Source: an uncultured Alphaproteobacteria bacterium (GTDB lineage: Bacteria; Pseudomonadota; Alphaproteobacteria; Rhizobiales; Methyloligellaceae). Taken from it: DNA of 64,000 nt. Position numbers and translations under genes: made by a program. The notes below the pieces were generated by a model, which saw only the letters and a list, made by a program, of their open reading frames with translations, searched no databases and was not told where the DNA came from. The stretch is from the NCBI GenBank assembly GCA_963820115.1, contig CAWFYP010000001.1, positions 698,897-762,896 on the forward strand, read 5' to 3'. Shown piece after piece: positions 678 to 32,494 of this stretch (positions are counted from its first letter, which is position 1; the number at the start of each line of letters is the position of its first letter).

Positions 678-1139
678 CTATTCGGCGGCATTTCGCCTCC
701 GCGTCCAACGTTGCTCGGCGGTCGCGTCGCGCGCATCGGCCTCGACCCAGCGAGTGCCCTCAGGTCCGGTCTCCTGCTTCCAGAACGGCGCGCGGGTCTT
801 GAGATAATCCATCAGGAATTCCGCCGCGGCGAAGGCCGCCTCGCGATGGCTGGAGGCCGTCGCCACGAGCACGATATTGTCGCCGGGCTTGAGCTTGCCC
901 ACGCGATGGACGATGAGGCACGCCTCCAGCGGCCAGCGTGTGCGCGCCTCGGCCTCGATGCGTTGAAGCTCGGCTTCGGTCATGCCGGGATAATGCTCGA
1001 GGCTCATCTTTTCCACCTGACCGTCGGCGTCACGCACCGTGCCGAGGAAGGTGACGAGGGCGCCGATGTCGGTGCGGCCAGCCTTGAGCCGTTGCACCTC
1101 GGCGCCGAGGTCGAAATCCTCTTCCTGCACGCGGATCAT
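678..1139 (-). CDS. moaE: molybdopterin synthase catalytic subunit MoaE
   Basis: Translation MIRVQEEDFD...GALVTFLGTVRD...SLEHYPGMTE...IVHRVGKLKPGDNIVLVATASSHREAAF...MDYLKTRAPFWK is typical MoaE. The ATG at 1139 lies 2 nt after the moaD stop. Confidence 0.92.
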   Translation of the reverse strand: MIRVQEEDFDLGAEVQRLKAGRTDIGALVTFLGTVRDADGQVEKMSLEHYPGMTEAELQRIEAEARTRWPLEACLIVHRVGKLKPGDNIVLVATASSHREAAFAAAEFLMDYLKTRAPFWKQETGPEGTRWVEADARDATAEQRWTRRRNAAE

Positions 1140-4072: not shown

Positions 4073-4813
4073 TTACCAGGCGAGATGCTGGCCGCCGTCA
4101 AGAGCGACCATCTGGCCCGTCATTGAAGGCGTGGCGAGGAGGAAGTCGATCGCGGCGCAGACCTCTTCCGGCGTGCCGCCCCGGCCAAGCGGCATTGAGC
4201 GGCATTCGCGTTCGAATTCCGCCGGGGTCTGCCGATGGCTCGGCAAGACCGGTCCCGGCCCGATGGCGTTGACGCGGATGCGGGGGCTGAGTGCCTGCGC
4301 CAGGGTGCGCGTCGCCGTCCAGAGCGCCGCTTTGGCGACGGTGTAGGAGAAGAAATCCGGGGTTAGGCGCCAAACTCGCTGGTCGATCATGTTGATCACG
4401 CAACCCCGCTGCGGTTCCGGCAAGATCTCGGCAAACGCCTTGGTGAGGAAGACGGGAGCACGGAGATCGACGTTGAGATGGGCCTGCCAGCCAGCCGGAT
4501 CGAGGGTGGCGATATCGTCCCACTCGAAACGGGCCGCGTTGTTGATGAGGCAGGTGGGCGCCCCAAGGCGCGAGGCGCAAGAAGCGACCAGAGGGGCAAG
4601 TGCTGCGACCTCGGCAAGATCGGCTTGCAACGCCCAGGCCTTGCCGCCCAAGGCCTCGATCGCTCTCACCAGCGTCGCCGCCTCGTCTTCGGCCTGGTGA
4701 TAGTGGACCCCGACGCGCCAGCCCATTCTTGCCAAATGCAGGGCTATCGCGTGGCCGAGCCGGCGCCCCGCGCCGGTCACGAGCGCGGTTCCGGGGATGA
4801 TGTCTTGCGCCAT
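4073..4813 (-). CDS. SDR family oxidoreductase (short-chain dehydrogenase)
   Basis: N-terminal TGAGRRLGHAIALHLARMG Rossmann motif, YxxxK-like YTVAKAAL, 246 aa. Confidence 0.85.
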   Translation of the reverse strand: MAQDIIPGTALVTGAGRRLGHAIALHLARMGWRVGVHYHQAEDEAATLVRAIEALGGKAWALQADLAEVAALAPLVASCASRLGAPTCLINNAARFEWDDIATLDPAGWQAHLNVDLRAPVFLTKAFAEILPEPQRGCVINMIDQRVWRLTPDFFSYTVAKAALWTATRTLAQALSPRIRVNAIGPGPVLPSHRQTPAEFERECRSMPLGRGGTPEEVCAAIDFLLATPSMTGQMVALDGGQHLAW

Positions 4814-5289
4814 GCCGCCAAGTTACGGTGAGGGAGAATGACTCCGGCGCTGCCGCCAGCGCTCCTGTCGCTCACTCTAGGCGAGGGTTCTTGGGTAAAC
4901 AATCAACTCCAAGGGACGACCGGTGACCCTTCTGAAGCGAATCTCGCAAGCGACTGAACCGGCGGCCCCTTCGACGCCATCGATAAGTCCCGCGATGTCC
5001 GCCTTCAGTTTGGGCAATTGCCAACATCTTGTGCAGGTTCCATGAATATTTGTTCGCCGCCGAGCGAGGCTAAAGCTCATTCGATCACCATTCCGCTTGG
5101 ACCATTGCAGATGTGTCACACTGGTCCCATTGTTTAGAGAAACCAGGGGTTTTTTCATTGCTTCGGGAGTCGGCCGCATTATTGTAGCGCTGAACAGGGG
5201 ACGTTGCGCCGCCCGAGTCGGGAGTGGTGCGGCCTCGCTGAGACGGAATTCTGTTGCAGGGACAAGGACATAACCGGGGGACTGAAGAA

Positions 5290-6069
5290 ATGGCTCGGCA
5301 GAACACGGCATTGGGGATGTTAAGGACTAGTATTGCGGGGGCGGCACTACTTGCTGGGCTAGCAGCCCCTGCGCTCGCCGACGACAAGCTCACCTTCTCA
5401 GGCAGCGCGGCGCTCACCACCGACTACGTGTTCCGCGGCGTCTCGCAGACCGACGAGAACGGTGCCATTCAGGGTGAGTTCGACGCCACCTGGAAAATCT
5501 TCTACCTCGGCGTGTGGGGGTCGAACCTCAATTTCGGCGGCGCACAGACACAAGCCGGCCAGTTCGTCGATGTGGCGCAGCTCGAAGCGGATTGGTATGG
5601 CGGCATCCGGCCGGTATGGAAGGGCGTGACGTTCGACATCGGCGGTATCTACTACAGCTACCCCAACTCGTTCGGCCCGGCGCATCTCGACTATTTCGAG
5701 CTGAAGACCGGTGGCTCCTATACCCTCTTCGATAAGCTGACGCTCGGCCTCTTCAACTACTATTCGCCGAACAACACCGGTGATGTCGGTGCCAACGACG
5801 TGTTGGAATTCGACTGGGCGTATGCTCTCAACAAGGTCTGGGGCGTCACCCCGACTCTGAGCGGTGTGTACGGCCGGCAGTGGGCCGATTCGAACCAAGG
5901 CGGCGTCAGCTACAGCTACGTAAACGTGGGCTTGACGGTCGGCTTCTGGGAGACGCCGGCGTTAAGCGCGGACATTCGCTTCTGGGATACCGACCTCAAT
6001 GGGTGCGGTGCCGCCACCATCTTCCAATGCGGGCCGCGCGTCGTGGGCACGCTCAAGGCCTCCTTCTGA
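5290..6069 (+). CDS. TIGR02001 family outer membrane protein
   Basis: Signal peptide ending ALADD, then FSGSAALTTDYVFRGVSQTDENGAIQGEFD, characteristic of this beta-barrel family. ATG at 5290 follows a GGGGGA Shine-Dalgarno, and a terminator follows the gene. Confidence 0.85.
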   Translation: MARQNTALGMLRTSIAGAALLAGLAAPALADDKLTFSGSAALTTDYVFRGVSQTDENGAIQGEFDATWKIFYLGVWGSNLNFGGAQTQAGQFVDVAQLEADWYGGIRPVWKGVTFDIGGIYYSYPNSFGPAHLDYFELKTGGSYTLFDKLTLGLFNYYSPNNTGDVGANDVLEFDWAYALNKVWGVTPTLSGVYGRQWADSNQGGVSYSYVNVGLTVGFWETPALSADIRFWDTDLNGCGAATIFQCGPRVVGTLKASF

Positions 6070-6101
6070 TTTAACTTCACCAAAAGCACTTCCCAACTTA
6101 G

Positions 6102-6130
6102 AAGGGCGCCGTTTTTAGCGCCCTTTTTTT
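6102..6130 (+). terminator. rho-independent terminator
   Basis: AAGGGCGC (6102-6109) pairs with GCGCCCTT (6118-6125) across an 8-nt loop. A T7 run at 6124-6130 follows, 33 nt after the stop at 6069. Confidence 0.8.
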
Positions 6131-6159
6131 CACGCGCGTCCGATGTCATATCCGCGGAC

Positions 6160-6852
6160 ATGAAGGATGCGGCTCCGGCACGACAGGTGAAGCTTGGCGA
6201 CGAGGCGATTGCCAGAGCGCATGTGATCTATACTCCGCGCGCCCTTGCGCTCTACGATGCCGTCGTCCACGGCCTCTCCAATCGCCTCGCCTGGCGGTGT
6301 CCCACCGCACGGCTCTTGCAACTCTATGCCGACAATCTTTCCGCCAATCATCTCGAGGCCGGCGTTGGTACGGGGTTCTTTATCGACCGGACGGCCCGCG
6401 CCGCCTTCGAGCGTCTCGTGCTGCTCGACATCAACGCGCATTGCCTGTCCGCCGCTGCGGCGCGGCTTGAGCGATTTGCCCCGGTGCCGTGGCAGGCGAG
6501 CCTGTTCGCGCCCTGGGGCGAGGCACGCGGCTGGGACCGCGTCCCGTTCCAGTCCATCGGCCTCACTTATGTGTTGCACTGCCTGCCCGGGCCCATGACC
6601 GAGAAGCTCGGAATCGTCGACCATTTGCGCGCGGCCATGGCTCCGGGGGCTGCGCTGTTCGGCGCCACCATCCTTGGCCGGGGCATCGCCCCCAATGGGG
6701 CGGCGCGGGCGCTTCTGGCGCTCTATAATCACAAGGGCGTGTTCAACAATCGCCAGGATGATCGCGAGAGCCTGGAGCGAGGTCTGAAGCAGCGGTTCGA
6801 TGCCGTCGCGATCGAGACCCAGGGCTGCGTTGCCATCTTCCGCGCGGCTTGA
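6160..6852 (+). CDS. class I SAM-dependent methyltransferase
   Basis: Motif I LEAGVGTGFF followed by LLDIN. 230 aa. Confidence 0.75.
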   Translation: MKDAAPARQVKLGDEAIARAHVIYTPRALALYDAVVHGLSNRLAWRCPTARLLQLYADNLSANHLEAGVGTGFFIDRTARAAFERLVLLDINAHCLSAAAARLERFAPVPWQASLFAPWGEARGWDRVPFQSIGLTYVLHCLPGPMTEKLGIVDHLRAAMAPGAALFGATILGRGIAPNGAARALLALYNHKGVFNNRQDDRESLERGLKQRFDAVAIETQGCVAIFRAA

Positions 6853-6868
6853 GGTGAGCGAGCAAGGC

Positions 6869-8074
6869 ATGACTTCTTATCCATCCACACCGCGGCCGAT
6901 CAGGCGCAGAGGTGCTGTGCTGGCGCTTCTGCTGCTTGCGGCGCTGCTCCTCTATCTCGCCTGGCGCGCTTTGCCGATCAACATTGCCATGCCGTCCAAG
7001 GAGGCAGGCTCTCCCGGCGATGCTGCGCGCGCGGCGGCCGGGCTGACCGCGCCGGCAGGCATGACGGTCAACGCCTATGCCACGGGATTGGGACCCGCGC
7101 GCATGATGGCACTCACGCCGAAGGGCGACATTCTCCTGACCGTGCCACCGAACCAGCTCTTGCTGATCAAAGCCGACCAGAACGGCGACGGACGCACCGA
7201 CGGGGTGATTACGCTGCTCGACGATTTGCATAATGCGAGTGGGATCGCCCTCGACGGCGATCAGCTCTATATCGCCGTGAACGGCCGCGTGCTCCGCGTT
7301 CCCTTCGACGCCGAGGCGGGGCGCGTGACCGGAGCGGCCGAGACCGTCATCGGTTTGCCGGCTGGCGGCATGCATTGGACGCGCACGATCAAGAAGGGCC
7401 CGGACGGGTATTTCTACGTGACCATCGGCTCGGACTGTAATGTCTGCATCGAGCAGGACCCGTGGCGCGCGGCCATGATCCGCTTCAAGCCAGGCGCGAC
7501 GCCGACGCTTTACGCCAGCGGCTTGCGCAACAGCGTCGGGTTCGACTGGCAGCCGGTAACTGGCGAGCTGTACGCGGTGAACAACGGCCGCGACTGGCTC
7601 GGGGACAACTTCCCGCCGGAAGAGGTCAATCGCATCGTCGAAGGCGGCTTCTATGGGTGGCCCTATCTCAACGGCGACAACGTGCCCGATCCCGATTACG
7701 GCAAAGACGTAGGCGACAGGGCCAAGACGGCGATCATGCCCGCCTACAAGCTACCGGCTCATGTGGCGCCGCTCGCGATACTCTTCCTGCGTCACGGGCG
7801 AGCGGACGCTTCCGCCGGCACGGCGTTGGTGGCGGAGCATGGAAGCTGGAACCGGTCGACGAAGGTCGGCTATCAAGTGGTGGCGCTCACCTGGCGGGAC
7901 GGGGCGATCAGCGAGGCGCCCTTCCTCACCGGGTTCCTCAAGGATGGCGTGGTGTCAGGGCGCCCGGTCGATATCGCCGAGGCGCCGGACGGCACGGTCT
8001 ACATCTCCGACGATTTCGGCGGCGTGATCTGGCGGGTAGCCCCACAAGCGCAAGCGCCGGGAAGCCCCGGCTAA
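6869..8074 (+). CDS. PQQ-dependent sugar dehydrogenase / sorbosone dehydrogenase family protein
   Basis: N-terminal TM segment, then beta-propeller-like repeats (NASGIALDGDQLYIA, GLRNSVGFDW, GFYGWPY, RPVDIAEAPDGTVYISDDFGGVIWRV). The internal ATG at 6869 avoids overlap with the upstream gene. Confidence 0.8.
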   Translation: MTSYPSTPRPIRRRGAVLALLLLAALLLYLAWRALPINIAMPSKEAGSPGDAARAAAGLTAPAGMTVNAYATGLGPARMMALTPKGDILLTVPPNQLLLIKADQNGDGRTDGVITLLDDLHNASGIALDGDQLYIAVNGRVLRVPFDAEAGRVTGAAETVIGLPAGGMHWTRTIKKGPDGYFYVTIGSDCNVCIEQDPWRAAMIRFKPGATPTLYASGLRNSVGFDWQPVTGELYAVNNGRDWLGDNFPPEEVNRIVEGGFYGWPYLNGDNVPDPDYGKDVGDRAKTAIMPAYKLPAHVAPLAILFLRHGRADASAGTALVAEHGSWNRSTKVGYQVVALTWRDGAISEAPFLTGFLKDGVVSGRPVDIAEAPDGTVYISDDFGGVIWRVAPQAQAPGSPG

Positions 8075-8274: not shown

Positions 8275-8964
8275 ATGCGTACGCGATTTCACCGGGCTGT
8301 GACTCTTGCCGCCATGGGCTTGGCCGGCGCCGCGGTCTCAAGCCCAGTGCTTGGTGCCGACATGCTGCCCGGCGGCCCGCCTCCTATCTATGAAGCAGGG
8401 CCGCCGCCGTCGTCGGAGCTGTTCGCCGGTTGGTGGCTGGGCGCCACGCTCGGCGGCGGCACTTACACGACCGACTTCTCCGAAGCCAAGGACAATATCG
8501 ACGGGGGCGGCATCCTCGGCGGCGGCATCGGCGGGTGGAACTGGCAAAACGGGCCCATCGTCATCGGGCTCGAGGGTGACGTGGTCGCGGCCGGCATCAA
8601 CGGCAACCGCCATTTCAACGGCGGCGCCAACAATGCAAGCCCGAGCATCGACACCATGGCCGATCTTCGTTTGCGCGCGGGCGTGGCGATCATGCCGAAT
8701 CTGCTGCTCTTCGCCACGGCCGGCGGCAGCTGGGCCGATGCCAGCCTGCCGATTACCGGACCGGGTGGGGCTTCGCGCGACGGCACATTCTTCGGTTGGA
8801 ATGTCGGCGGCGGCGCCGAGGTCGCGTTCAGCCAGAATTGGAGCGCGCGCTTCGACTATCAGTTCACCGATTTCGACTCCAATTCGGTGTCCTATCCGGG
8901 CGGCAAGACGAAGTACGATCCCGACCTCAGCACCTATCGCGGCTCGTTCATCTACCATTTCTGA
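8275..8964 (+). CDS. outer membrane beta-barrel protein (Omp25/OmpA-like porin family)
   Basis: Signal peptide MRTRFHRAVTLAAMGLAGAAVSSPVLGAD, Gly-rich alternating strands, and a C-terminal aromatic residue (...RGSFIYHF). Confidence 0.8.
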   Translation: MRTRFHRAVTLAAMGLAGAAVSSPVLGADMLPGGPPPIYEAGPPPSSELFAGWWLGATLGGGTYTTDFSEAKDNIDGGGILGGGIGGWNWQNGPIVIGLEGDVVAAGINGNRHFNGGANNASPSIDTMADLRLRAGVAIMPNLLLFATAGGSWADASLPITGPGGASRDGTFFGWNVGGGAEVAFSQNWSARFDYQFTDFDSNSVSYPGGKTKYDPDLSTYRGSFIYHF

Positions 8965-8990
8965 GCGCCGGACACGGCGGAAGAGGGACG

Positions 8991-9743
8991 CTAGCGGGTG
9001 CTTGCTTGCGGCGGGCGCAGCTCGAGCGTGTCGTGCCGACAGAGACGCTTTTCGTCTTCGTTGGTACCGCACGTCCTCGGAGTGAGATCGCGGGCGAAGC
9101 AGAAGCGGACGTCGAGCAATTCCTGGCCACGGCAGGCCACGGCCATCATGTCGGGCTTGAGCCACGCATTGGCGCCCACGAAGTCGCGCTCGATCTCGTC
9201 GGGTGACGCCTTGAGCCACTGGTCAGGATCGGTAAAGCGCGGCGGTATGGTCACCCGATTATAGAGCGCGCGCGCCACGTTGAAATATTGGCCGGGGTCG
9301 AGACCCGAGCAGGTACCATGCGCGCGATATTCATGAATGATGAGATTCTTGCCCGGCATCATCGGGAGCATGGCGTCGATCACCGCGCTTGGGACCCAGG
9401 GGCGCTCGCTTGTGGCGCAGTCCTTCGGCCAGCCCCGCTCATATTGCGGCCATAGCCCATGCAAGACGAAGGCGCGGGGATGCTGCCCCTCGCATTGACG
9501 GTCGTCCCGGCCGCGGCCTTCGCTCGCGCAATAGGCCGGCGACCAGCCGAGCACCAGCAGGTAGTAATCGAAACGTCCCGGAGGGTTGGGGGCGGATTGT
9601 TCCGGCGCCTTATGGTCCGCACCTTGCGGGACATGGTCGAGCTCTCCCGGCGTCTTCTCGACCGGGCGGAAATAGGCGGCCAACGTCACCACCACCGCCA
9701 GGATGATCAGCAGGAGGACGAGCTTAACGAGGTTCGGCCGCAT
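8991..9743 (-). CDS. ribonuclease T2 family protein (RNase I-like), membrane-anchored or secreted
   Basis: CAS I/II-like motifs [21 protein letters not shown] and [14 protein letters not shown] at 9743 gives an N-terminal hydrophobic segment ([21 protein letters not shown]). Confidence 0.85.
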
Positions 9744-10065
9744 CGATCGACCCAAGCGCGTACAAGATGCGGGCCCAGCTCCGGGCGCCTTTGGTAAAGC
9801 TCGCGAGGTTGTACTTCTCGTCGGGGGAATGAATGCGGTCATCGTCGAGGGCAAAGCCGATGAGCAGCGCTTGCATGCCGAGCCGCGAGCGGAACAATTC
9901 GACGATGGGGATGGACGCACCGCAGCCGATCATCATTGGCGCTTTGTCCCATTCCCGCTCGAGCGCCTCGGCCGCGGCCATGAAGGGCGGCGGTGGTTCA
10001 CACCCATCGCTCAAGGCTCGAAGCATAACGTCGCGAGGAACGGCGCGTGGCGACGCCGGCGACAT
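9724..10065 (-). pseudogene. remnant of an M20-family dipeptidase/peptidase (C-terminal ~100 codons only)
   Basis: [12 protein letters not shown]...[32 protein letters not shown] matches the extreme C-terminus of ~450-aa M20 peptidases. No upstream catalytic part exists, because cspA ends 45 nt upstream. Confidence 0.6.
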
Positions 10066-22241: not shown

Positions 22242-22853
22242 TTAGAGCTTCTGCTCGGGAACCGGCGCCGTCGTTGCGCTGGCGTCGCTATGCGCCGCAT
22301 CGATGATGAGGCGGAGGGCACTGGCCGCTGAGGGGTTAAGGGGCGTGCAGGTGAGGAGATGCGGATCGGTCTCCGGCACAGCCGTCTTTGGGCATGGCTC
22401 GGTCGGGCCCGGGACCGTCACTCTTTCCAGCGACTTCAGACCTTTGGCCGGGGTCACGCTCGGATCGCCTAGGGCGATGTCACCGAAGGCAAGATTAGGA
22501 TCGGCGGCGTCCGCTGCGGCGCGAGAACCGGCTTTGAGCGGCCGCCCCCGGGCGAAGGGGGGCCTCTGCCATTCGGATTCGGTGAGCACCACGGCGCTGA
22601 GGCCGAGGCGCGGGATCGGCGACTTGGCCGCGGGCGTGGCACCGTCCCATGGCCAGGGCTGCTGAGCCGGCTCGCCTGCCAGTGCGTGGCGCCACGCACT
22701 CTGGCGCAGCGACTGGGCGATGCCGGATTTGAGGCCAGGGCCCTCGCCATGCAGAAGGCAGAGAAGCGCCACGCCACTCAGGATGGTTCCCAACCACCGC
22801 GCCCGCGCGCGGAAGAAGAGGAGGAGGAGCTGCACCGACCCCCGTTTCGGCAT
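22242..22853 (-). CDS. class GN sortase-like protein, apparently lacking the catalytic His
   Basis: The ATG at 22853 overlaps the upstream stop (TGATG). N-terminal TM segment, PWPWD and LGLSAVVL motifs, HLLTCTP (sortase TLxTC-like) and RLII (Arg). No His between residues 57 and 164. Confidence 0.55.
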   Translation of the reverse strand: MPKRGSVQLLLLFFRARARWLGTILSGVALLCLLHGEGPGLKSGIAQSLRQSAWRHALAGEPAQQPWPWDGATPAAKSPIPRLGLSAVVLTESEWQRPPFARGRPLKAGSRAAADAADPNLAFGDIALGDPSVTPAKGLKSLERVTVPGPTEPCPKTAVPETDPHLLTCTPLNPSAASALRLIIDAAHSDASATTAPVPEQKL

Positions 22854-25396
22854 CAGATCCTCCTCCCTATCCGCCGCGGGGAGGCATAATCGCGGCGGTG
22901 GTAACGCCACAAGAGAAGCGTCACCGCGCTTAGCATGGCGAGTAGCAGTGCGAACATCGCGATCTGCCGGATGAAATCGTCAGGTGTGACCACGGGCGGC
23001 ACGGCCAGTTGAGGCGAGGCCCCTTCCGGACCGGTGTTCTCCGGCGCGGGTGTCGCGGGCGATTGCGCGTCCGCCTCGCCGCCATCGAAGGCGGTCACGC
23101 CAGGGTCGGCGGCAGGCGCATCGGCCGGCCCGCCAGTCGCATCCATTTCTGGCCCCGGTACCGCCATGGTCTCCGCCGCGACGCCGCCCTCGGACGGCAC
23201 CGCCGAAGGCGCGTAGGACGGCGCGGGAGCGGGTGCGGGCAACGCCGCAAACGCGCCGCCGCTCAGGGACCGCATGCCGCCTATGCGGGACGCTTTGGCC
23301 ATGTAACCGTAACTTCCGCCCGACCCATAGGAGGCCGCCGCCTGTTGACCCTGGGCCGGGGCGCCAAAGACTTTGTCATATCGCCAGCCGTCGGGCAGGT
23401 TGACCGGCAGGTCGGTCGAGGTGACAGCTTGGCCATCGGGCCGCGACCTGGTCGTGTCAATGGCGACGAGGCTCGTCTCGCTCGAGACCAAATGGTGCTT
23501 GAGTGCCATAGCTTCGATTTCCTTGGCGATTTCCTCGGAATTGCCGTCGGCGTAAAGCTTGCCTTCCAGCGCGGCAATCTTGTTGCGGGCCCAGAGCTTG
23601 CCGACGCCCGCGCCCTCGACGGCGCCGGAGAGCTTGAACGCGGCCTGCCACGGCTTGCCGTCGAAGGTGCCGGATAGGCGCAGCGCGCCGTCGGGAGAGG
23701 CGGCCTTGGCCGACACCAATATGGGTTCCCCGGCATAGAGATCGGGCAACGGGTCGGGCCAAGCTTCGACAGCGCCCGCGCCCTGCCACTCGGCCTTGAG
23801 GCCGACCAGCACCGGCTTTTCGAGCTTGGCGAAGAGGGCGGTCATGCGCTCCAGCACCTGCGCTTCGGAGCCGATCTCGGTGAAGGTGCCGCGGCCGAGC
23901 TCGGCCGCACGGCGCATGAAATAAGAGTTGGGCGCGGAGCCGATGCCGACGGTGAACAGGCGCGAGCGGCCGCGATGATCGGCGATCTCGGTGAACAGTT
24001 CGGCTTCGTTGCCGACCGCGCCGTCGGTGAGAAACACGATCTGACGCACATGGCTCGTATCGGCGGGTGTGCCATCTTTGAGCGCGGCTTTGAGCGCGGG
24101 CAGCATCTCGGTGCCGCCATCGGCGTCGAGCCGCGAAACGAAATGCTTGGCGATGGCGAGATTTTCTGAGGTTGTGGCGGCGGGCTCGTCGAACACCGTG
24201 TCCATGGTGTCGTCGAAGCGGATGACGTTGAATTTGTCGCCCGGGCGCAGGCGGTTCAAGGCGAAGAGGAGGCTTTCCTTGGCCTGGGGCATCGAGGTGC
24301 CGGCCATGGAGCCGGAATTGTCGATCACGAAGATGATCTCGCGCGGGAGCGGCGCCTGCGCGCTGTCAAGGCTCGGCGGAGTGACCATGGCCAGAAGATA
24401 ATGCTCGCCGGCCACGGTCTCGTGGAACAGCGAGGCTTGCGGGGCGGCGGCCGCCTTCGGCTTCCACACGAGTTCGAAGTCCTTGTTGGCGGCCACCGAT
24501 CCGTCGGCGAGCGCCAATGTGGCAGTCTTGTCGCCGGTCCGCTTCAGCGCGATCTGGTGGTAGGAACTCGTGACGTCGCCAAGGTCGAAGCCCGCATTGA
24601 GCGTGACCTGCAGGGTGACCGGATTGATTTTGGCGAATTTGTTGGGATCGAGCACGGGCGGGCTGATGCGGTCGCGGTCGGGCACGGGATCGCCCACGGG
24701 CGCGTGCGGGCGCCCATAGTCGACGAGGTCGACCTCTTTCGAGTTCGGATTATAGCGGGGCGCGACCACGAGAGGGAAGCGCAGGGAATAGATACCCCCG
24801 TCTTGTTTCACCGTTTCCTGATATTCAATGCGGATGACGATGGCCTCATGGGGGCCGATATTGGCCACCGAATTGGTGAAGATGTTCGGCCGCTCCTGTT
24901 CGACGAGGCTCGCCTTCTGGCCGGCGTCCCTGGCCTCGTCATAGAGCTTGCGCGCTTCCTCTCGGCCTTTGATCTCGCCTTCGATGGCCCGGCTGCCAAT
25001 CTCCATGTGCAGCGCGTCGACCGCGGATTGCTCCGGCAGGGGGAAAACATAAACCCCTTCGAGCCAACGATCACTCGGGTTTGCGAAACGCTGGGTGACG
25101 ATGGCGCGGGCGATGGTACCGGTGACGGTAATGTTGACGTCGGTAGCGAGGCGCGGGGCCTCGACGAATTGACCTTCCTTGCCGCTCTTAAGCAGGAGGG
25201 CGCCCGTGTTCATATCGCCGGGGGTCACGAAATTGACGGGGGTGATGGCGCTGCCGCCTGCCTCGGTCTGAGGCTGGAGGGGGTCGGCACTGGCCGATCG
25301 TGAAGGTGCCGCGCCAATGAAGCCAAGGATGAGGAAAAGCACCGCGCAATTGAACGCCAACTCTCTCAAGCAGAGAGCTTGTGGCCGCGTCAGCAT
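22853..25396 (-). CDS. VIT + von Willebrand factor A domain protein (marine proteobacterial sortase target protein family)
   Basis: 847 aa with a signal peptide, an N-terminal VIT-like region, vWA MIDAS FVIDNSGSMAG, and a C-terminal hydrophobic segment plus basic tail (FALLLAMLSAVTLLLWRYHRRDY). A sortase-like gene is coupled downstream. Confidence 0.8.
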   Translation of the reverse strand: MLTRPQALCLRELAFNCAVLFLILGFIGAAPSRSASADPLQPQTEAGGSAITPVNFVTPGDMNTGALLLKSGKEGQFVEAPRLATDVNITVTGTIARAIVTQRFANPSDRWLEGVYVFPLPEQSAVDALHMEIGSRAIEGEIKGREEARKLYDEARDAGQKASLVEQERPNIFTNSVANIGPHEAIVIRIEYQETVKQDGGIYSLRFPLVVAPRYNPNSKEVDLVDYGRPHAPVGDPVPDRDRISPPVLDPNKFAKINPVTLQVTLNAGFDLGDVTSSYHQIALKRTGDKTATLALADGSVAANKDFELVWKPKAAAAPQASLFHETVAGEHYLLAMVTPPSLDSAQAPLPREIIFVIDNSGSMAGTSMPQAKESLLFALNRLRPGDKFNVIRFDDTMDTVFDEPAATTSENLAIAKHFVSRLDADGGTEMLPALKAALKDGTPADTSHVRQIVFLTDGAVGNEAELFTEIADHRGRSRLFTVGIGSAPNSYFMRRAAELGRGTFTEIGSEAQVLERMTALFAKLEKPVLVGLKAEWQGAGAVEAWPDPLPDLYAGEPILVSAKAASPDGALRLSGTFDGKPWQAAFKLSGAVEGAGVGKLWARNKIAALEGKLYADGNSEEIAKEIEAMALKHHLVSSETSLVAIDTTRSRPDGQAVTSTDLPVNLPDGWRYDKVFGAPAQGQQAAASYGSGGSYGYMAKASRIGGMRSLSGGAFAALPAPAPAPSYAPSAVPSEGGVAAETMAVPGPEMDATGGPADAPAADPGVTAFDGGEADAQSPATPAPENTGPEGASPQLAVPPVVTPDDFIRQIAMFALLLAMLSAVTLLLWRYHRRDYASPRRIGRRI

Positions 25397-27251: not shown

Positions 27252-28181
27252 ATGGACATGCCGATCGCCAGCCAAACACCGGTCGCGGCGGATCCCTTGT
27301 CGCGCAGCCATGTGCTCGCCGGCGGCAGGCGCGTGGGCTTCGCCGAATTTGGCGACCCGCGAGGGCTGCCGGTATTCGCGCTGCATGGGACGCCGGGCTC
27401 GCGGCTGATGTTCGCGCTCTCGCACCGGGCCGCGCGCGAGCGGGGGCTCAGGCTTATCGCCCCCGAACGCCCGGGCTACGGCTTGTCGTCCTACCGCCGA
27501 TCCGCCACTTTGCTCGACCACGCCCAGGACATCGGCGCGCTGGCCGATGCATTCGGCTTCCGCCGGTTTGCGCTGGTCGGCATCTCGGGGGGCGGCCCGT
27601 ACGCGGTCGCCGCCGCGTCCGCCATGCCGGAGCGGGTCGTGCTGCTCGCGCTGGTGGGGCCGGTCGGCCCCATTGCCGATCACGGGCGCCAAATGCGGCT
27701 GTCGCGCGGACACCGCCTATTGTTCGAGCGGGTGGCGCGATGGTCGTGGGCGACCCGCGCCTTCTTCCTCGGCTTGCGCCGGCTCCTGCGCACGGCGCCG
27801 GAAATCGCACATCGGGGGCTCAAGGCGCGGGTGCCCCCCTCCGACCGCGCCATTCTCGCGCGCGACGACGTCAAAGCGAATCTGCGCGCGGCGGTGCATG
27901 AAGGCCTCCGCGCGGGCGTCGAGGGCGCCGTGCAGGATGTGCGCCTGTTCTGTGCGCCTTGGGGTCTCGCGCTGTCCCGCATCGACGCCTCCTCCGTGCT
28001 GTGGCAGGGGAGCGACGACAGCATCGTGCCGCCGGACGCCGCCTATCTCTTGGCGCGGACGCTTGCCAATTGCCGGCTGGATGTCGTCCCCGGCGCCGGC
28101 CATTATTGGGTGTTCGGCCAATTCGGCTTGGTGCTCGACGCCGTCGCCGCAGCGATGCGTAGCGAGGCCAGGGCCCGATGA
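27252..28181 (+). CDS. alpha/beta hydrolase
   Basis: HGTPGSRL oxyanion region and nucleophile elbow GISGGGPY. 309 aa. Confidence 0.8.
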   Translation: MDMPIASQTPVAADPLSRSHVLAGGRRVGFAEFGDPRGLPVFALHGTPGSRLMFALSHRAARERGLRLIAPERPGYGLSSYRRSATLLDHAQDIGALADAFGFRRFALVGISGGGPYAVAAASAMPERVVLLALVGPVGPIADHGRQMRLSRGHRLLFERVARWSWATRAFFLGLRRLLRTAPEIAHRGLKARVPPSDRAILARDDVKANLRAAVHEGLRAGVEGAVQDVRLFCAPWGLALSRIDASSVLWQGSDDSIVPPDAAYLLARTLANCRLDVVPGAGHYWVFGQFGLVLDAVAAAMRSEARAR

Positions 28182-28353
28182 CGCCCCGCCGGGGTGGCGC
28201 ATCATTGCCATGCTTCGTTCACACTTTTGTGCGCAAACCTGCGGCGTTGTGGCGCTGGGGGCCAAAAGGCGAAGCAGCATTATATCCCCGCGGGGTGTCA
28301 TTGGCGCGCGAGCTCGTGCGCCTTAGACGAGTTTCTGGGCGGCATGACCTCCG

Positions 28354-31300
28354 ATGACCGGTAGACCAATTTTCCACGATCCGACGGGCAGGCGCGGCCG
28401 CGTCCTGGGGCGGCTTGCCTGGGCGGCAGGCACGCTCAGCGCGCTCGTCACCGTCCTTTTCATCGCCACGCTGATGGTGGCGCATCGGCCGGGAGTGGAG
28501 CGTGCCGATCCCGGGGCGCCGAGGCCGTCGATCCGTTGTGCCTGGGCGCCCACCTGCGCGACGGCGCATGCGTTGAACACGACGCCGGCCGCCGATCCCG
28601 AGCTGCTCAAGCAGGCAAACAAGCTCGCCGCCGAATTGCGGGAGAGGGAGAGAGGTTTGCGTGGCCAACGCCCGCAAGCGGAAGTGATCGACCGGCGCCC
28701 GTTGCCGGCATCGCTTGCCTCTCCCCACGACCGCTCCTTGAGCATCGGCTTTTATGTGAACTGGGACGACAACAGCTACCCGGCCTTGAAGCGGGCGCTG
28801 CCGCATCTCGATTGGCTCGTTCCGGGTTGGCTCAGCCTTGAAGGGCCGGACATGGCGGTGAAGGCCGATGTCGACGCCCGCGTACTGAACTACATCCAGG
28901 CCACCAAGCCTAACCTCCCGATCCTGCCCATGATCCAGAACGCGGTGGAGGGCAAATGGGACGGCGCGGGTCTCGCCAAGCTCTTGGCCGATCCCACCCA
29001 GCGCGCCACACGCGTCGCGGAGATCGTTGCTTTTCTCGACAAATACAAGTTCCAGGGTCTCACGGTCGACTTCGAGGAGGTGCCGGCGGCGGCGCAGAAG
29101 AATCTGCAGCTGTTCCTCACGGAAATGGCCGCTGCCTTCGCGCCGCACCAATACGTCATCGCGCTGGCGGTGCCCTTCGACGACGACGCGTGGCCCTATG
29201 CGACCTATGCCCACATCGTCGATTTCATGATGCTCATGGGTTACGACCAGCATTGGGAGGAGGGTGAGCCCGGAAGCATCGCCGGTCAAAGCTGGTTCGA
29301 GGACATTCTCGACAAGCGCATGAAGACGCTCGACCCCGAGCGCACCATCATCGCCATCGGCAGCTATGGCTACGACTGGGTGAAGGGCAAGAACGCCGAC
29401 GACCTCACCTTCGAGGAGGCGGTGTTGTCGGCACGCGATTCGGAAGCCGACATCGACTTCGATCCGGAGACCAACAACCCTCACTTCTCGTTTGTCGAGG
29501 ACAATGGCCAGCGCCACGACGTTTGGTTCCTGGACGGCGTCACCGCCTTCAACGAGGTCCATGCCGCCGACGTGTACCGCCTGGCCGGCTACGCCCTGTG
29601 GCGGCTTGGTTCCGAGGACCCATCGATCTGGTCGGTGCTTGGGCGTCCCTATGATGCGGCCGTGCCCGACGCCTTGGGGGAGATCGGGACGAGCGAGGAC
29701 ATCGATTTCGAGGGGGAGGGGGAGATCCTGCGCGTGGCCGAGCGCCCGGCGACGGGCGCGCGGGTGATGGAGATCGACAAGGACACGGGCGACGTCGTCG
29801 ACCAGACCTACACCAAGATTCCCACGCCCTATGTGATCGAGCGGACCGGGGCCAAGCCAGGCGAGCTCGCGCTCACCTTCGACGATGGCCCGGACCCCGA
29901 TTGGACGCCGAAGATCCTCGACATTCTGAAGGACAAGGGTGTCAAGGCGAGTTTCTTCATCATCGGCAACAACGCGCAAGCCTATCCCGACCTCGTGCAA
30001 CGCATCCTCGCCGAAGGTCACGATGTGGGGAACCACACTTTCACCCACCCCAATCTCGGGGAGATGCCGAACGCGCTCGTCACTCTCGAGATCAACGCCA
30101 CGCAGCGACTGTTCGAGGCTTTGACCGGGCGATCCATGCGGCTGTTCCGGGCGCCCTATTTCGGCGACGCCGAGCCGACCACGGGCGATGAGATCGCGCC
30201 GATCGAGGCCGCCCAGTCCATGGGCTATTTCTCGGTCGGGCTGCATGTCGACCCGGACGATTGGCAGCGGCCTCCGGTCGACACCATCGTCCAACGGGCC
30301 GTGGCCCAGGTCATGGATCCAAACCCAGATATCCGGGGCCATATCATCCTGCTGCACGATTCCGGCGGCGACCGCTCACGCACCGTCGCGGCGCTGCCGA
30401 AGCTCATCGATGCGCTGCGGGCCAAGGGCTATAGCTTCGTGCCGGTGTCGGAGCTTGCCGGGCTCACGCGCGATCAGGCGATGCCGCCCGTTCCCCTCAC
30501 CTCGCTCGGGAGGCTCGTCGGTCTGCCGGTGTTCATGACGCTTGGCTGGCTCGGCCATCTGCTCACCAGTCTGTTCATCGTTGCCATCTGGCTCGGCGTC
30601 GCGCGGCTCCTGTTCCTGTGCGTCATCGCCTTGCGCAACCGCCGGGCGGAGGCCAAGCGCGTGCCGCCCCCCTTGCCGGAGCCCGCGCCGCTGCAGTCGG
30701 TGCTGATCCCCGCCTTCAATGAGGCCAAGGTCATCGTGCGCTCGATCGGTCACATCCTGGCGAGCGACTATCCCAATCTCGAAATCATCGTCATCGACGA
30801 CGGCTCGACCGACGGCACGGCGGACCGCGTGCGGGAGCATTTTGCCGACGATCCGCGCGTCACGCTTCTGACCGTGCCCAACGGCGGCAAGGCGAGGGCG
30901 CTCAATTGCGGCTTGCGCCAGGCGCGAGGCGGCGTGGTCGTGGCGCTCGACGCCGACACGCATTTCCAGTCCGATTCCATCACCAAGCTCGTGCGCTGGT
31001 TCGCGGACCCGGACGTCGGCGCGGTGGCCGGGAACGCCAAGGTGGGCAACCGCATCAACGTCATCACTCGCTGGCAGGCGCTGGAATATGTGACGAGCCA
31101 GAATCTGGAGCGGCGTGAGCTCGCCGCCCTTGGCTGCATCACCGTCGTGCCGGGGGCCATCGGCGCCTGGCGGCGCGAGGCGTTGGAAAAGCTTGGCGGG
31201 TTCCCCGTCGACACGCTGGCCGAGGACCAAGACCTTACTATTTCCATGCTCAAGGCCGGCTACAAGGTGCTGTACGAACTCTTCTGCCATCGCCTGGACC

Positions 31301-31804
31301 GAGGCGCCCGACACGGTGAGGGGCCTCGTCAAGCAACGCTTCCGCTGGGCCTTCGGCACGCTGCAATGTTTGTGGAAGCATCGCGCGGTGACGCTGCGGC
31401 CGCGTTACGGCACGCTCGGGCTGGTGGCCTTGCCGCAGACCTGGCTGTTCCAGTTCCTGTTCACCCTACTTGCACCGCTCGTCGATCTCGCGCTGTTCTG
31501 GCGGCTGGCCATCTCGACCTACGACGTGCTGCAACATCCCGATCAGTTCGACAGCGATGCCCTGCGCAAGGTGCTCGTCTATTACCTCGTCTTCCTGGTC
31601 GTCGACCTTGGCGGCGCGGCGATCGCGCTCGCCATGGAGCACAAGGAGAAATGGGGTCTCGTGCCCTGGCTCGTGCTGCAGCGTTTCGGCTACCGCCAGC
31701 TGATGTATTACGTGGTGATTAAGGCGATGTTCGCCGCCGCGCTTGGGCCGCTGGTCGGCTGGGGCAAACTGGAGCGCAAATCCACGGTCGGGGCGACCGC
31801 GTAG
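28354..31804 (+). pseudogene. fused GH18-like / polysaccharide deacetylase (CE4) / family-2 glycosyltransferase (PgaC/IcaA-like synthase), frameshifted near 31277
   Basis: ORF 28354..31722 carries a TM segment, GH18-like GLTVDFEE...MGYDQHW, CE4 FDDGPDPDWTP...HDVGNHTFTHP and GT2 IPAFNE...VIDDGSTDGT...ALDADT...LAEDQDLT. The QRFRWAFG motif and C-terminal TM segments continue in ORF 31115..31804, in the +1 frame. Confidence 0.85.
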
Positions 31805-31837: not shown

Positions 31838-32494
31838 CTACAGCTTGTCGTAGGTCAAACAGCAGCAATCCTTCAATCCGTCCGGACGTATTTTGCAGGC
31901 GAGCTTTTCCTCGGCCCCCGGGCACGGTTCGGGGTTGACGTCGGCGGTCAATCCCCTCCGGCACGTCGCGGTGTAATGGACGCAATTGCCGCCCAGCAAT
32001 TCTGAATTCTTCGGGCAGTGACAATCATTGGGTGGCGTCCCGACCATGCCGTGCGGGCAGGGCTGGCCCGCCGCCGGCGCTCCGCCCGGCGGCTCGCAAT
32101 AGCCGGATTGGGTCGGCACCGCGAGAACCCGGTAGCCCGGAGGGCAGGCATGCTCGCCCGGCTTAACGGCCCCATTTTCCGGGAGGCCGCTTTGGGCGCC
32201 GGGAGCAGGGGCGGTCGCGTCTTGCTCCCCCGGCGGGGCTGGAGTTGAGGTGTCCGGAACGTCTTGATCGACGCCCGGGATGGCATTCTTTCCGTGCTCC
32301 ACGACGCCGGGGGCCGACTTACATCCCCACGTGCCTTCGGACATGCCGCAGACGATCTTGGCTTCGAGCACAAGATGTCGCGCCGATGACGGCCGGGTAA
32401 ACTGCCCGACGGCCGCGGCTTCGTCACCGCCGCCGAGCGCCAAGAGCAGCACCCAAAGCGAAGACGCCAGCACAAAGGCGAACAGCAGACGCAT
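31838..32494 (-). CDS. hypothetical secreted cysteine-rich protein
   Basis: Shine-Dalgarno GGACGGAG. Signal peptide MRLLFAFVLASSLWVLLLAL. C-terminal half with about 14 Cys (ACPPGY...CEPP...PCPHG...CHCPKN...NCVHYTATC...DCCCLTYDKL). Confidence 0.65.
   Translation of the reverse strand: MRLLFAFVLASSLWVLLLALGGGDEAAAVGQFTRPSSARHLVLEAKIVCGMSEGTWGCKSAPGVVEHGKNAIPGVDQDVPDTSTPAPPGEQDATAPAPGAQSGLPENGAVKPGEHACPPGYRVLAVPTQSGYCEPPGGAPAAGQPCPHGMVGTPPNDCHCPKNSELLGGNCVHYTATCRRGLTADVNPEPCPGAEEKLACKIRPDGLKDCCCLTYDKL

Follow-up and report, generated by a model that had tools for sequence, protein, structure and literature searches.

Synthase-dependent exopolysaccharide systems, among them those for cellulose, poly-N-acetylglucosamine (PNAG), Pel and alginate, normally comprise several genes and several proteins. 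Can such a system be carried by a single gene? This question is raised by a locus in a 64,000-nucleotide stretch of DNA (the window) from an uncultured alphaproteobacterium of the Methyloligellaceae (GenBank assembly GCA_963820115.1, contig CAWFYP010000001.1, positions 698,897 to 762,896). A gene on its forward strand, 28354..31804 counted from the first letter of the window, encodes on one polypeptide a glycoside hydrolase family 18 (GH18) domain, a carbohydrate esterase family 4 (CE4) deacetylase and a processive glycosyltransferase family 2 (GT2) synthase, as a preliminary description made from the letters alone had proposed; one frameshift interrupts the window copy. We lean towards the view that this fusion protein unites synthase, deacetylase and hydrolase of a PNAG-like polymer in one inner-membrane polypeptide, of the same kind as MatAB, PgaBC and IcaAB.

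Domain architecture and distribution

Domain searches confirmed the GH18 and CE4 signatures as well as the GT2 domain, and every sequence motif quoted in the preliminary description was located in the window. In Pfam, GH18 (PF00704) matched amino acids (aa) 132-419 with an E value of 5e-17 (62.9 bits, cutoff 29.6; positions 4-315 of the 317-position profile), CE4 (PF01522) matched aa 502-602 with an E value of 2e-34 (118.8 bits, cutoff 23.1), and GT2 (PF13641/PF00535) matched aa 782-1001 with an E value of 1e-33. An AlphaFold2 model of P0001, a homologue 93% identical to the window protein once its frame is restored, was built from a 45-sequence alignment (mean predicted local distance difference test score, pLDDT, 78.5). 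It placed the first transmembrane (TM) helix, TM1, at aa 13-41, then a disordered linker, GH18 at aa ~129-445, CE4 at aa 504-710 and GT2 at aa 781-1010, followed by a C-terminal TM bundle. The N-terminal cytoplasmic motif together with TM1 forms a fourth conserved module, which was absent from the earlier list of domains. Between GH18 and CE4 the model contains a small six-stranded beta-sandwich (aa 450-499) with invariant residues G454, G456, L459, P465, G468 and R470; aa 446-500 matched no Pfam family. This sandwich may be a carbohydrate-binding or spacer module. Some family members depart from the common layout: GH18 is duplicated (GH18-GH18-CE4-GT2) in P0254 and P0270 (~1,545 aa), and P0358 (1,246 aa) has an added N-terminal DUF2062.

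Conservation was assessed in alignments of 14 full-length homologues, of 13 N-terminal regions from at least seven phyla, and of 45 sequences. In the GH18 domain, D239-x-E241 (within TVDFEE), M295, D298 and W416 were invariant in the 13 phylum-spanning and 45 further sequences, and Y297 was at least 90% conserved in the same set. The middle Asp of the DxxDxDxE motif is replaced by Thr; Bacillus subtilis YdhD has the same GVTIDFE form, and the replacement appears to be a subfamily trait rather than a sign of decay. All five CE4 motifs (TFDDG, HTFTH, RAPY, DPDDW and LLH) are present. Their residues D510, D511, H561, H565, R599-x-P-Y, D633..D636-W and L-L-H668 were invariant in the 14 full-length homologues, and the motifs were at least 90% conserved in the wider alignment where it covers them. 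DDG 815-817, DAD 866-868, ED 957-958 and QRFRW 994-998 of GT2 were invariant among the 14 full-length homologues, the sole alignment that tested this domain. The window DNA encodes all catalytic residues of the three domains (QRFRW out of frame), and the active sites look intact. The closest intact homologue is a gene, 89% identical at the DNA level, on a 50-kb JGI metagenome contig syntenic with the window (L001). Relative to this gene, the ratio of non-synonymous to synonymous substitution rates (dN/dS, Nei-Gojobori) was 0.09 overall and 0.04-0.14 across the modules, which corresponds to purifying selection on all of them.

Hydropathy, the positive-inside rule (an Arg-rich N-terminus and an Arg/Lys-rich stretch past the helix at aa 718-768) and the AlphaFold model agree with the earlier proposal that hydrolase and deacetylase lie outside and the synthase inside: the topology that fits has the N-terminus inside, GH18 and CE4 outside and GT2 inside. 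The N-terminal TM segment was likewise recovered. By contrast, the two TM segments proposed between CE4 and GT2 were not. In the model, the connector is one continuous 51-residue helix (aa 718-768), predicted to be one membrane pass (TM2) plus an extension. With CE4 outside and GT2 inside, an odd number of passes is needed, and a single TM2 fits. Foldseek searches of the PDB with the GT2 and TM part returned the archaeal GT2 PcManGT (6yv7), the Chlorella-virus and Xenopus hyaluronan synthases and BcsA, the matches running into the TM regions of the hyaluronan synthases and BcsA. The C-terminal TM bundle and TM2 are presumed to form a polymer-conducting channel.

The fusion architecture is widespread. 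A species-level scan, with one genome per species, found it in at least 590 loci from at least nine phyla, monoderms and diderms alike; the best 80 of these loci are nearly all full-length. Hosts include Alphaproteobacteria (Rhizomicrobium, Parvibaculum, Caulobacterales, Sphingomonas), Gammaproteobacteria (Rhodanobacter, Frateuria), Acidobacteriota (Granulicella, Terriglobales, Blastocatellia), Gemmatimonadota, a cyanobacterium, Bacteroidota (Elizabethkingia, Chitinophagaceae), Bacillota and Armatimonadota. Plasmid or chromid copies, annotated only as 'glycosyltransferase', occur in Sphingomonas, Sphingobium, Novosphingobium, Bacillus mycoides, Deinococcus, Prevotella nigrescens and Sulfitobacter, and database labels of family members read just 'glycosyltransferase' or 'polysaccharide deacetylase'. 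With the GH18 and beta-sandwich module as query, an exhaustive search yielded 547 clusters at 50% identity (E up to 1e-30). Of the best 150 matches, nearly all have the module starting at residue ~90-130, right past the N-terminal module; roughly 40% of these matches are 1,000-1,550 aa long, and most others look like fragments. Standalone homologues of the GH18 module were also sought with a profile; the matches were for the most part fragments of the fusion or split calls of it, and an actinobacterial MatA was not among them.

The frameshift admits one further explanation of the three-domain gene, that it is a chimera of assembly or that the shift is programmed. Beyond the frameshift itself nothing favors either idea. 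The same order and length recur in at least 590 independent genomes, including isolates and plasmids, all homologues read through in a single frame, and positions 31270-31285 contain neither a slippery site nor a nearby stop codon. We give this explanation practically no credence.

Databases already contain the architecture, which falls into the familiar MatAB/Pga/Ica-type synthase-dependent class. Dassa et al. (2012) tabulated ZP_09465738 of Acetivibrio cellulolyticus as GH18-CE4-GT2 (PMC3413522), and Bundalovic-Torma et al. (2020) reported divergent Gram-negative PgaB clades fused to a glycosyltransferase, without pgaA and pgaD and with PNAG production unconfirmed (PMC7112194). Both are catalogue-level sightings; neither includes a functional, structural or evolutionary analysis or a MatA-like module, and the 2020 paper does not include GH18. 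What the present analysis adds is the N-terminal MatA-like module, the wide distribution, the assignment of GH18 to the SleL/YdhD type and the topology with a single TM helix.

Relationship to MatAB and nature of the polymer

The preliminary description had compared the protein with PgaABCD and IcaADBC. That comparison holds for the division of labor: the Escherichia coli and staphylococcal systems also have a GT2 synthase (PgaC/IcaA), a CE4 deacetylase (PgaB-N/IcaB), a hydrolase (PgaB-C, GH153) and a small membrane helper (PgaD/IcaD). There, however, the functions reside on separate proteins, an outer-membrane porin (PgaA) is present, and the hydrolase is GH153 rather than GH18, while the CE4 domain of the fusion is nearer to the NodB/PgdA type than to PgaB. 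The closest studied system is instead Streptomyces MatAB (SCO2963/SCO2962). MatB comprises an extracellular CE4 domain, one TM segment and an intracellular GT2 domain; MatA is a small membrane protein with no known domain that is nevertheless required; and the product is PNAG, as shown with monoclonal antibody F598 and dispersin B (PMC5972031, PMC4391728).

Among plasmid records, tblastn retrieved actinobacterial proteins annotated as 'bifunctional polysaccharide deacetylase/glycosyltransferase family 2'. The CE4-TM-GT2 part of the fusion shares 41% identity with a MatB-like protein of Streptomyces viridifaciens over ~645 aa (92% of the 700-aa query), rising to 48-50% in the GT2 core. Directly upstream of this MatB-like gene, a 255-aa hypothetical protein aligns with the fusion N-terminus: MatA-like residues 98-122, PPVFVDASGRRQRRIRRLGAVLAVP, match RPIFHDPTGRRGRVLARLAWVAGTL of the fusion (hhalign probability 82%, E 1e-5). 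The same motif and TM segment are found upstream of MatB-like genes in two further Streptomyces replicons (three in all), and in Kocuria rosea they are fused straight to a MatB-like protein. When a hidden Markov model (HMM) of fusion N-termini was run against 11,624 six-frame open reading frames (ORFs), it picked, besides fusions, only MatA-like and Kocuria proteins (E 5e-7 to 4e-3); the next unrelated ORF had an E value of 0.11. The motif occurs in at least 50 of 62 fusion loci. These matches suggest that the N-terminal motif and TM1 constitute a MatA-like module; MatA orthology of the upstream ORFs we infer from their position and description. A plausible series would run from separate MatA and MatB (Streptomyces) through a fused MatA core and MatB (Kocuria, an intermediate form without GH18) to the MatA core-GH18-MatB fusion of this family.

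The resemblance to MatAB extends to the CE4 domain, single TM segment, PgaC-like GT2 and C-terminal TM helices on one chain, as in MatB, and to the lack of a porin. Unlike MatAB, the fusion unites the MatA-like and MatB-like parts and inserts the GH18 barrel and beta-sandwich (~380 aa) between TM1 and CE4, where MatA-like proteins have a low-complexity tail rich in Pro, Ala and Thr; its hosts are, moreover, mostly diderms. Homology between MatA and the GH18 domain was considered and rejected, hhalign aligning the N-terminal motif and TM segment alone. On the Kocuria rosea plasmid (L084), the motif-CE4-GT2 gene (4365-6941, + strand) is followed by a convergent gene annotated as 'chitinase' (6987-7973, - strand). 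This annotated chitinase is not a detached version of the fusion GH18, as hhalign found no similarity between it and the GH18 module.

What polymer would such a protein make? PgaC, IcaA, NodC, HasA and the chitin synthases use UDP-N-acetylglucosamine (UDP-GlcNAc). As these are the close relatives of the GT2 domain, it can be firmly inferred by analogy that the polymer is based on GlcNAc. The best NCBIfam model for GT2 is PgaC_IcaA (TIGR03937, 193.4 bits); the NodC model reached 119 bits (cutoff 550) and the NodB model, for CE4, 142 bits (cutoff 240), both below their cutoffs. Identity in the GT2 core is 31% to E. coli PgaC, 29% to Ralstonia PgaC and 35-37% to NodC. Pairwise similarity, which is about the same for PgaC and NodC, was discarded as uninformative about linkage, and only the tree and the MatB link favor beta-1,6. 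In a neighbor-joining tree of GT2 cores (291 columns, 200 bootstraps, HasA as outgroup), the fusion and MatB-like sequences formed a clade in 200/200 bootstraps, and this clade joined PgaC, not NodC, again in 200/200. Given this tree and the demonstrated product of MatAB, a PNAG-like polymer, that is, a partly de-N-acetylated beta-1,6-GlcNAc, is most likely.

A beta-1,4 product, either a chitin- or chitosan-like polymer or chito-oligosaccharides, would give the three domains other roles: GT2 would be a chitin or NodC-like synthase, CE4 a chitin deacetylase and GH18 a chitinase that sets chain length. Known GH18 chemistry is beta-1,4, the GH18 fold matches chitinases in Foldseek, and CE4, besides its score on the NodB model, matches chitin deacetylases; GT2 matches Pfam Chitin_synth_2 (E 1e-12) and is as similar to NodC as to PgaC in pairwise comparison. 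Rhizobial NodC and NodB likewise pair a UDP-GlcNAc-using GT2 with a CE4 deacetylase. NodB, however, is cytoplasmic and a separate protein, the Nod products are short beta-1,4 oligomers, and the tree puts NodC outside the group of fusion, MatB and PgaC. Furthermore, MatB follows the same pattern of a 'NodB-like' CE4 plus a PgaC-like GT2, yet makes PNAG and no calcofluor-detectable beta-1,4 glycan (PMC5972031). We therefore regard a beta-1,4 product as unlikely.

The GH18 domain belongs to the SleL/YdhD-like subfamily and has no relation to the GH153 domain of PgaB; its Foldseek matches were SleL (4s3j, E 1e-20) and, with a target TM-score of 0.86, a GH18 from Chromobacterium (5jh8). The Bacillus proteins SleL/YaaH, which are spore cortex-lytic, and YdhD are its best matches in structure and sequence and share the G-V-T-I-D-F-E form of the catalytic motif. 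Unlike the fusion, in which GH18 is tethered to a polysaccharide synthase, they are soluble or LysM-anchored peptidoglycan hydrolases. A hydrolase partnered with a synthase is a recurring theme, as in PgaB with its GH153 domain (PMC5933820). Candidate substrates are the protein's own polymer, by analogy with PgaB-GH153, PelA, BcsZ and PslG, or peptidoglycan.

In the latter case the periplasmic GH18 and CE4 domains would act on the wall rather than on the nascent polymer, either opening a path for it by local cutting and deacetylation of the sacculus or coupling wall remodeling to synthesis. Besides the cortex-lytic relatives of GH18, the nearest CE4 relatives include the peptidoglycan GlcNAc deacetylases PgdA and PdaC, there is no porin or other export partner, and a possible link to peptidoglycan was raised in the 2015 MatAB paper (PMC4391728). 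On the other hand, SleL and YdhD share only 21-24% identity with the domain, and wherever a synthase-dependent system has been characterized, the polymer that it makes is also the substrate of its partner hydrolase and deacetylase (PMC5933820). The near confinement of the GH18 module to the fusion, as judged from the best 150 matches, also argues for a role tied to the product of the synthase. Action on peptidoglycan instead of the polymer consequently seems improbable to us.

All ORFs within 5 kb were clustered across 62 fusion loci, and this revealed no universally conserved neighbor and no porin gene. Neither PgaA, as the preliminary description had noted for the immediate surroundings, nor PgaD or a GH153-bearing PgaB is encoded within 5 kb in the window or in the 62 related loci. 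On B. mycoides plasmids, the fusion gene stands alone between insertion sequence (IS) elements. As it has no universal partner and no porin, the fusion protein appears self-sufficient. The fusion itself, purifying selection and occurrence in at least 590 genomes, often as a monocistronic gene, all count in favor of a one-protein system.

On the reading that we prefer, in which the fusion makes and modifies a PNAG-like polymer by itself, the cytoplasmic GT2 domain would polymerize UDP-GlcNAc processively and pass the chain through a channel of TM2 and the C-terminal helices, as in BcsA and hyaluronan synthase. The chain would exit at the outer face of the membrane beside the tethered CE4 domain, where partial removal of N-acetyl groups would render it cationic and adhesive. 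The tethered GH18 domain, with its substrate-assisted D-x-E residues intact, may then trim or release the polymer; hydrolases have such a role elsewhere (PgaB-GH153, PelA, BcsZ, PslG). The N-terminal P-[IV]-F-x-D-x3-R-R motif and TM1, the putative counterpart of MatA, would probably assist or regulate the synthase from the cytoplasmic side in the manner of PgaD/IcaD.

Several points weigh against this reading. To our knowledge, characterized GH18 enzymes all cleave beta-1,4 linkages next to GlcNAc (in chitin, peptidoglycan or the N-glycan core) and none acts on beta-1,6 PNAG, and the nearest GH18 relatives are the spore-cortex peptidoglycan hydrolases SleL, YaaH and YdhD. The GT2 domain does not reach the equivalog cutoff of PgaC_IcaA (422.3 bits), which makes it a relative of PgaC/IcaA rather than a certified equivalog. 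Its core is pairwise equidistant from E. coli PgaC (135 bits) and NodC (126-127 bits), and the tree that separates the two is a simple neighbor-joining tree with few taxa that depends on its root. Among the best 25 models, CE4 scores higher on PdaB, NodB and PgdA than on any PgaB model; this argument against PNAG is weakened, however, because the CE4 domain of MatB has also been described as 'NodB-like' (PMC4391728). The link to MatA stands on MatA-like ORFs in the same position in actinomycetes other than S. coelicolor (SCO2963). A full-text literature search found no functional study of a GH18-CE4-GT2 fusion, and in diderm hosts the polymer would have to cross the outer membrane without a porin.

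Taken together, the findings allow a more far-reaching but distinctly tentative picture, one that we would not yet bet on: an unrecognized and very widespread one-gene exopolysaccharide system with MatA-like helper, synthase, deacetylase and hydrolase, in which GH18 has a new specificity (for partly deacetylated beta-1,6-GlcNAc, or for a path through peptidoglycan), the product of diderms reaches or stays in the envelope without a dedicated porin, and the Arg-rich N-terminal motif is a regulatory handle, possibly a site for a nucleotide second messenger. Such a protein would be a minimal, portable module for a cationic GlcNAc polymer, and it already occurs on plasmids and between IS elements. 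It would also offer a natural experiment on why synthases always pair with a deacetylase and a hydrolase, and a way into the question of what MatA does in Streptomyces pellet formation, a matter of importance to industrial fermentation. Members are common among Acidobacteriota, Gemmatimonadota, sphingomonads and Rhodanobacteraceae, major soil groups about whose adhesion and matrix biology little is known, and the family therefore may be a substantial overlooked contributor to soil aggregates and biofilm matrices.

Reading frame and single-base lesion of the window copy

The preliminary description had read the region as one gene save for one frameshift, and the comparison with L001 bears this out. 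The ORF listing contains a frame at 28354..31722 (+) of 1,122 aa that overlaps a second one at 31115..31804 in the +1 frame; the two joined make up one gene, and the second holds the expected continuation SSAIAWTEAPDTVRGLVKQRFRWAFG. Alignment to the L001 gene shows exactly one gap column, an extra A at ~31277. With the frame restored, the sequence across the lesion reads KVLYDSSAIAWTEAP and the product is 1,149 aa long, the same as P0001; more than 100 further full-length homologues differ from this length by no more than a few residues. Unrepaired, frame 1 runs to a stop at 31722 and yields 975 native residues followed by 147 out-of-frame residues. QRFRW and every C-terminal TM helix lie 3' of the extra base and are out of frame, so the window copy would be synthase-dead if that base is real.

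Codons 3' of the lesion differ from those of L001 by 45 synonymous and 8 non-synonymous changes (dN/dS 0.044). It follows that the frameshift arose very recently or is an error of sequencing; for the source genome, this means that its copy is broken or mis-sequenced at one base. We see an even chance that the gene is a recently inactivated pseudogene, a status compatible with any mechanism. Cells that lose an adhesive polymer could have a selective advantage, for instance in culture, and there is a precedent in the matA frameshift of a non-pelleting Streptomyces, which was selected in a chemostat (PMC4391728). The inserted base is not inside any long homopolymer, and it is the sole frame disruption among ~20 genes comparable with L001. 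Against inactivation stand the low dN/dS past the shift and the lack of a second lesion, which an error of sequencing or assembly fits equally well, as well as the split versions of the gene in many related metagenome assemblies. Many database entries for the GH18-CE4-GT2 family, in the hit list of the profile search and for example in L035 and L059, are split or truncated gene calls on long contigs. Since the family is often broken in assemblies, through errors or real decay, the frameshift in the window is not unusual in kind.

Coordinates, neighboring genes and flanking DNA

The features of the locus are collected in Table 1.

Table 1. Features of the fusion gene and its leader, in window coordinates.
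Feature	Position	Strand	Basis or remark
Whole gene	28354..31804	+	1,149 aa without the extra base at 31277/31278
Predicted MatA-like module: N-terminal cytoplasmic motif PIFHDPTGRRGR (28366-28401), then TM1 (aa ~13-41)	28354..28485	+	hydropathy and AlphaFold
Periplasmic linker, aa 45-120, low confidence, poorly conserved	28486..28713	+	pLDDT <50 for aa 45-84; variable alignment columns
Predicted GH18 (beta/alpha)8 barrel, SleL/YdhD-like subfamily	28714..29688	+	Pfam, Foldseek, invariant residues
TVDFEE motif	29062-29079	+	
MGYDQHW motif	29233-29256	+	
Small conserved beta-sandwich, aa 446-500	29689..29853	+	model strands 450-499; invariant columns
CE4 (NodB-homology) de-N-acetylase	29854..30489	+	Pfam; PDB matches 7y51 and PgdA-type, E ~1e-34
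TFDDGP motif	29875-29892	+	
HTFTHP motif	30034-30051	+	
Predicted single long helix, aa 718-768: TM2 and positively charged cytoplasmic extension	30505..30657	+	AlphaFold; hydropathy window 725-762
Processive GT2 synthase domain (DDGSTDG, DADT, GAxGAWRR, EDQDLT, QRFRW)	30676..31384	+	Pfam, NCBIfam, Foldseek, tree; interrupted by frameshift
DDGSTDG motif	30796-30816	+	
DADT motif	30949-30960	+	
EDQDLT motif	31222-31239	+	
QRFRW motif	31334-31348	+	
Frameshift site	31276..31279	+	GAAC in window, GAT in intact homologue; inferred original GAC (Asp)
C-terminal TM bundle, helices aa 1021-1060, 1067-1094, 1100-1110, 1113-1134	31415..31756	+	hydropathy, AlphaFold
Upstream leader/intergenic region	28182..28353	+	blocks conserved with L001, partly with more distant L006: TGCGGCGTTGTGGCGCTGG; GCATTATATCCCCGCGGGGTG

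The leader matched no Rfam family and has no sigma-70-like promoter, and scans for Rfam families, tRNAs, promoters and terminators returned nothing informative. A sequence resembling an anti-Shine-Dalgarno element, GACCTCC, abuts the fusion start codon, which is also overlapped by a 6-codon upstream ORF (from ATG at 28344 to TAG).

Among the loci compared, the sole recurrent neighbor is a PMT_2/ArnT-like gene, restricted to Acidobacteriota and divergently transcribed in 24 loci. It encodes a GT-C membrane protein of ~489 aa and lies ~157 bp upstream of the fusion (L075, 6262-7731, - strand, and 23 other Acidobacteriota/Blastocatellia loci); we regard it as a lineage-specific candidate partner.

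In the window, the neighboring genes encode an aminotransferase, a TOBE protein, an alpha/beta hydrolase, a Cys-rich secreted protein and an elongation factor G (EF-G) paralogue, and their synteny is shared only with the two closest relatives, L001 and L006. The alpha/beta-hydrolase gene (27252-28181, + strand), a neighbor common to L001 and L006 only, is directly upstream on the same strand, with a gap of 172 bp compared with 27 bp by the L001 call. That call (8907-9974, 355 aa) runs into conserved non-coding DNA and mimics a frameshift in tblastn; a second frameshift, suggested by the split match in this gene, was accordingly rejected, as the window gene ends at 28181 and the L001 call is over-extended. 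Downstream, a convergent gene (31838-32494, - strand) encodes a Cys-rich, apparently secreted protein of 218 aa that matches no Pfam family and has conserved counterparts in L001 and L006 only. Farther away, an 847-aa protein with VIT and VWA domains (22853-25396, - strand) is followed by a partner gene for ~200 aa (22248-22853, - strand); both genes are syntenic with L001 and have nothing to do with the fusion.

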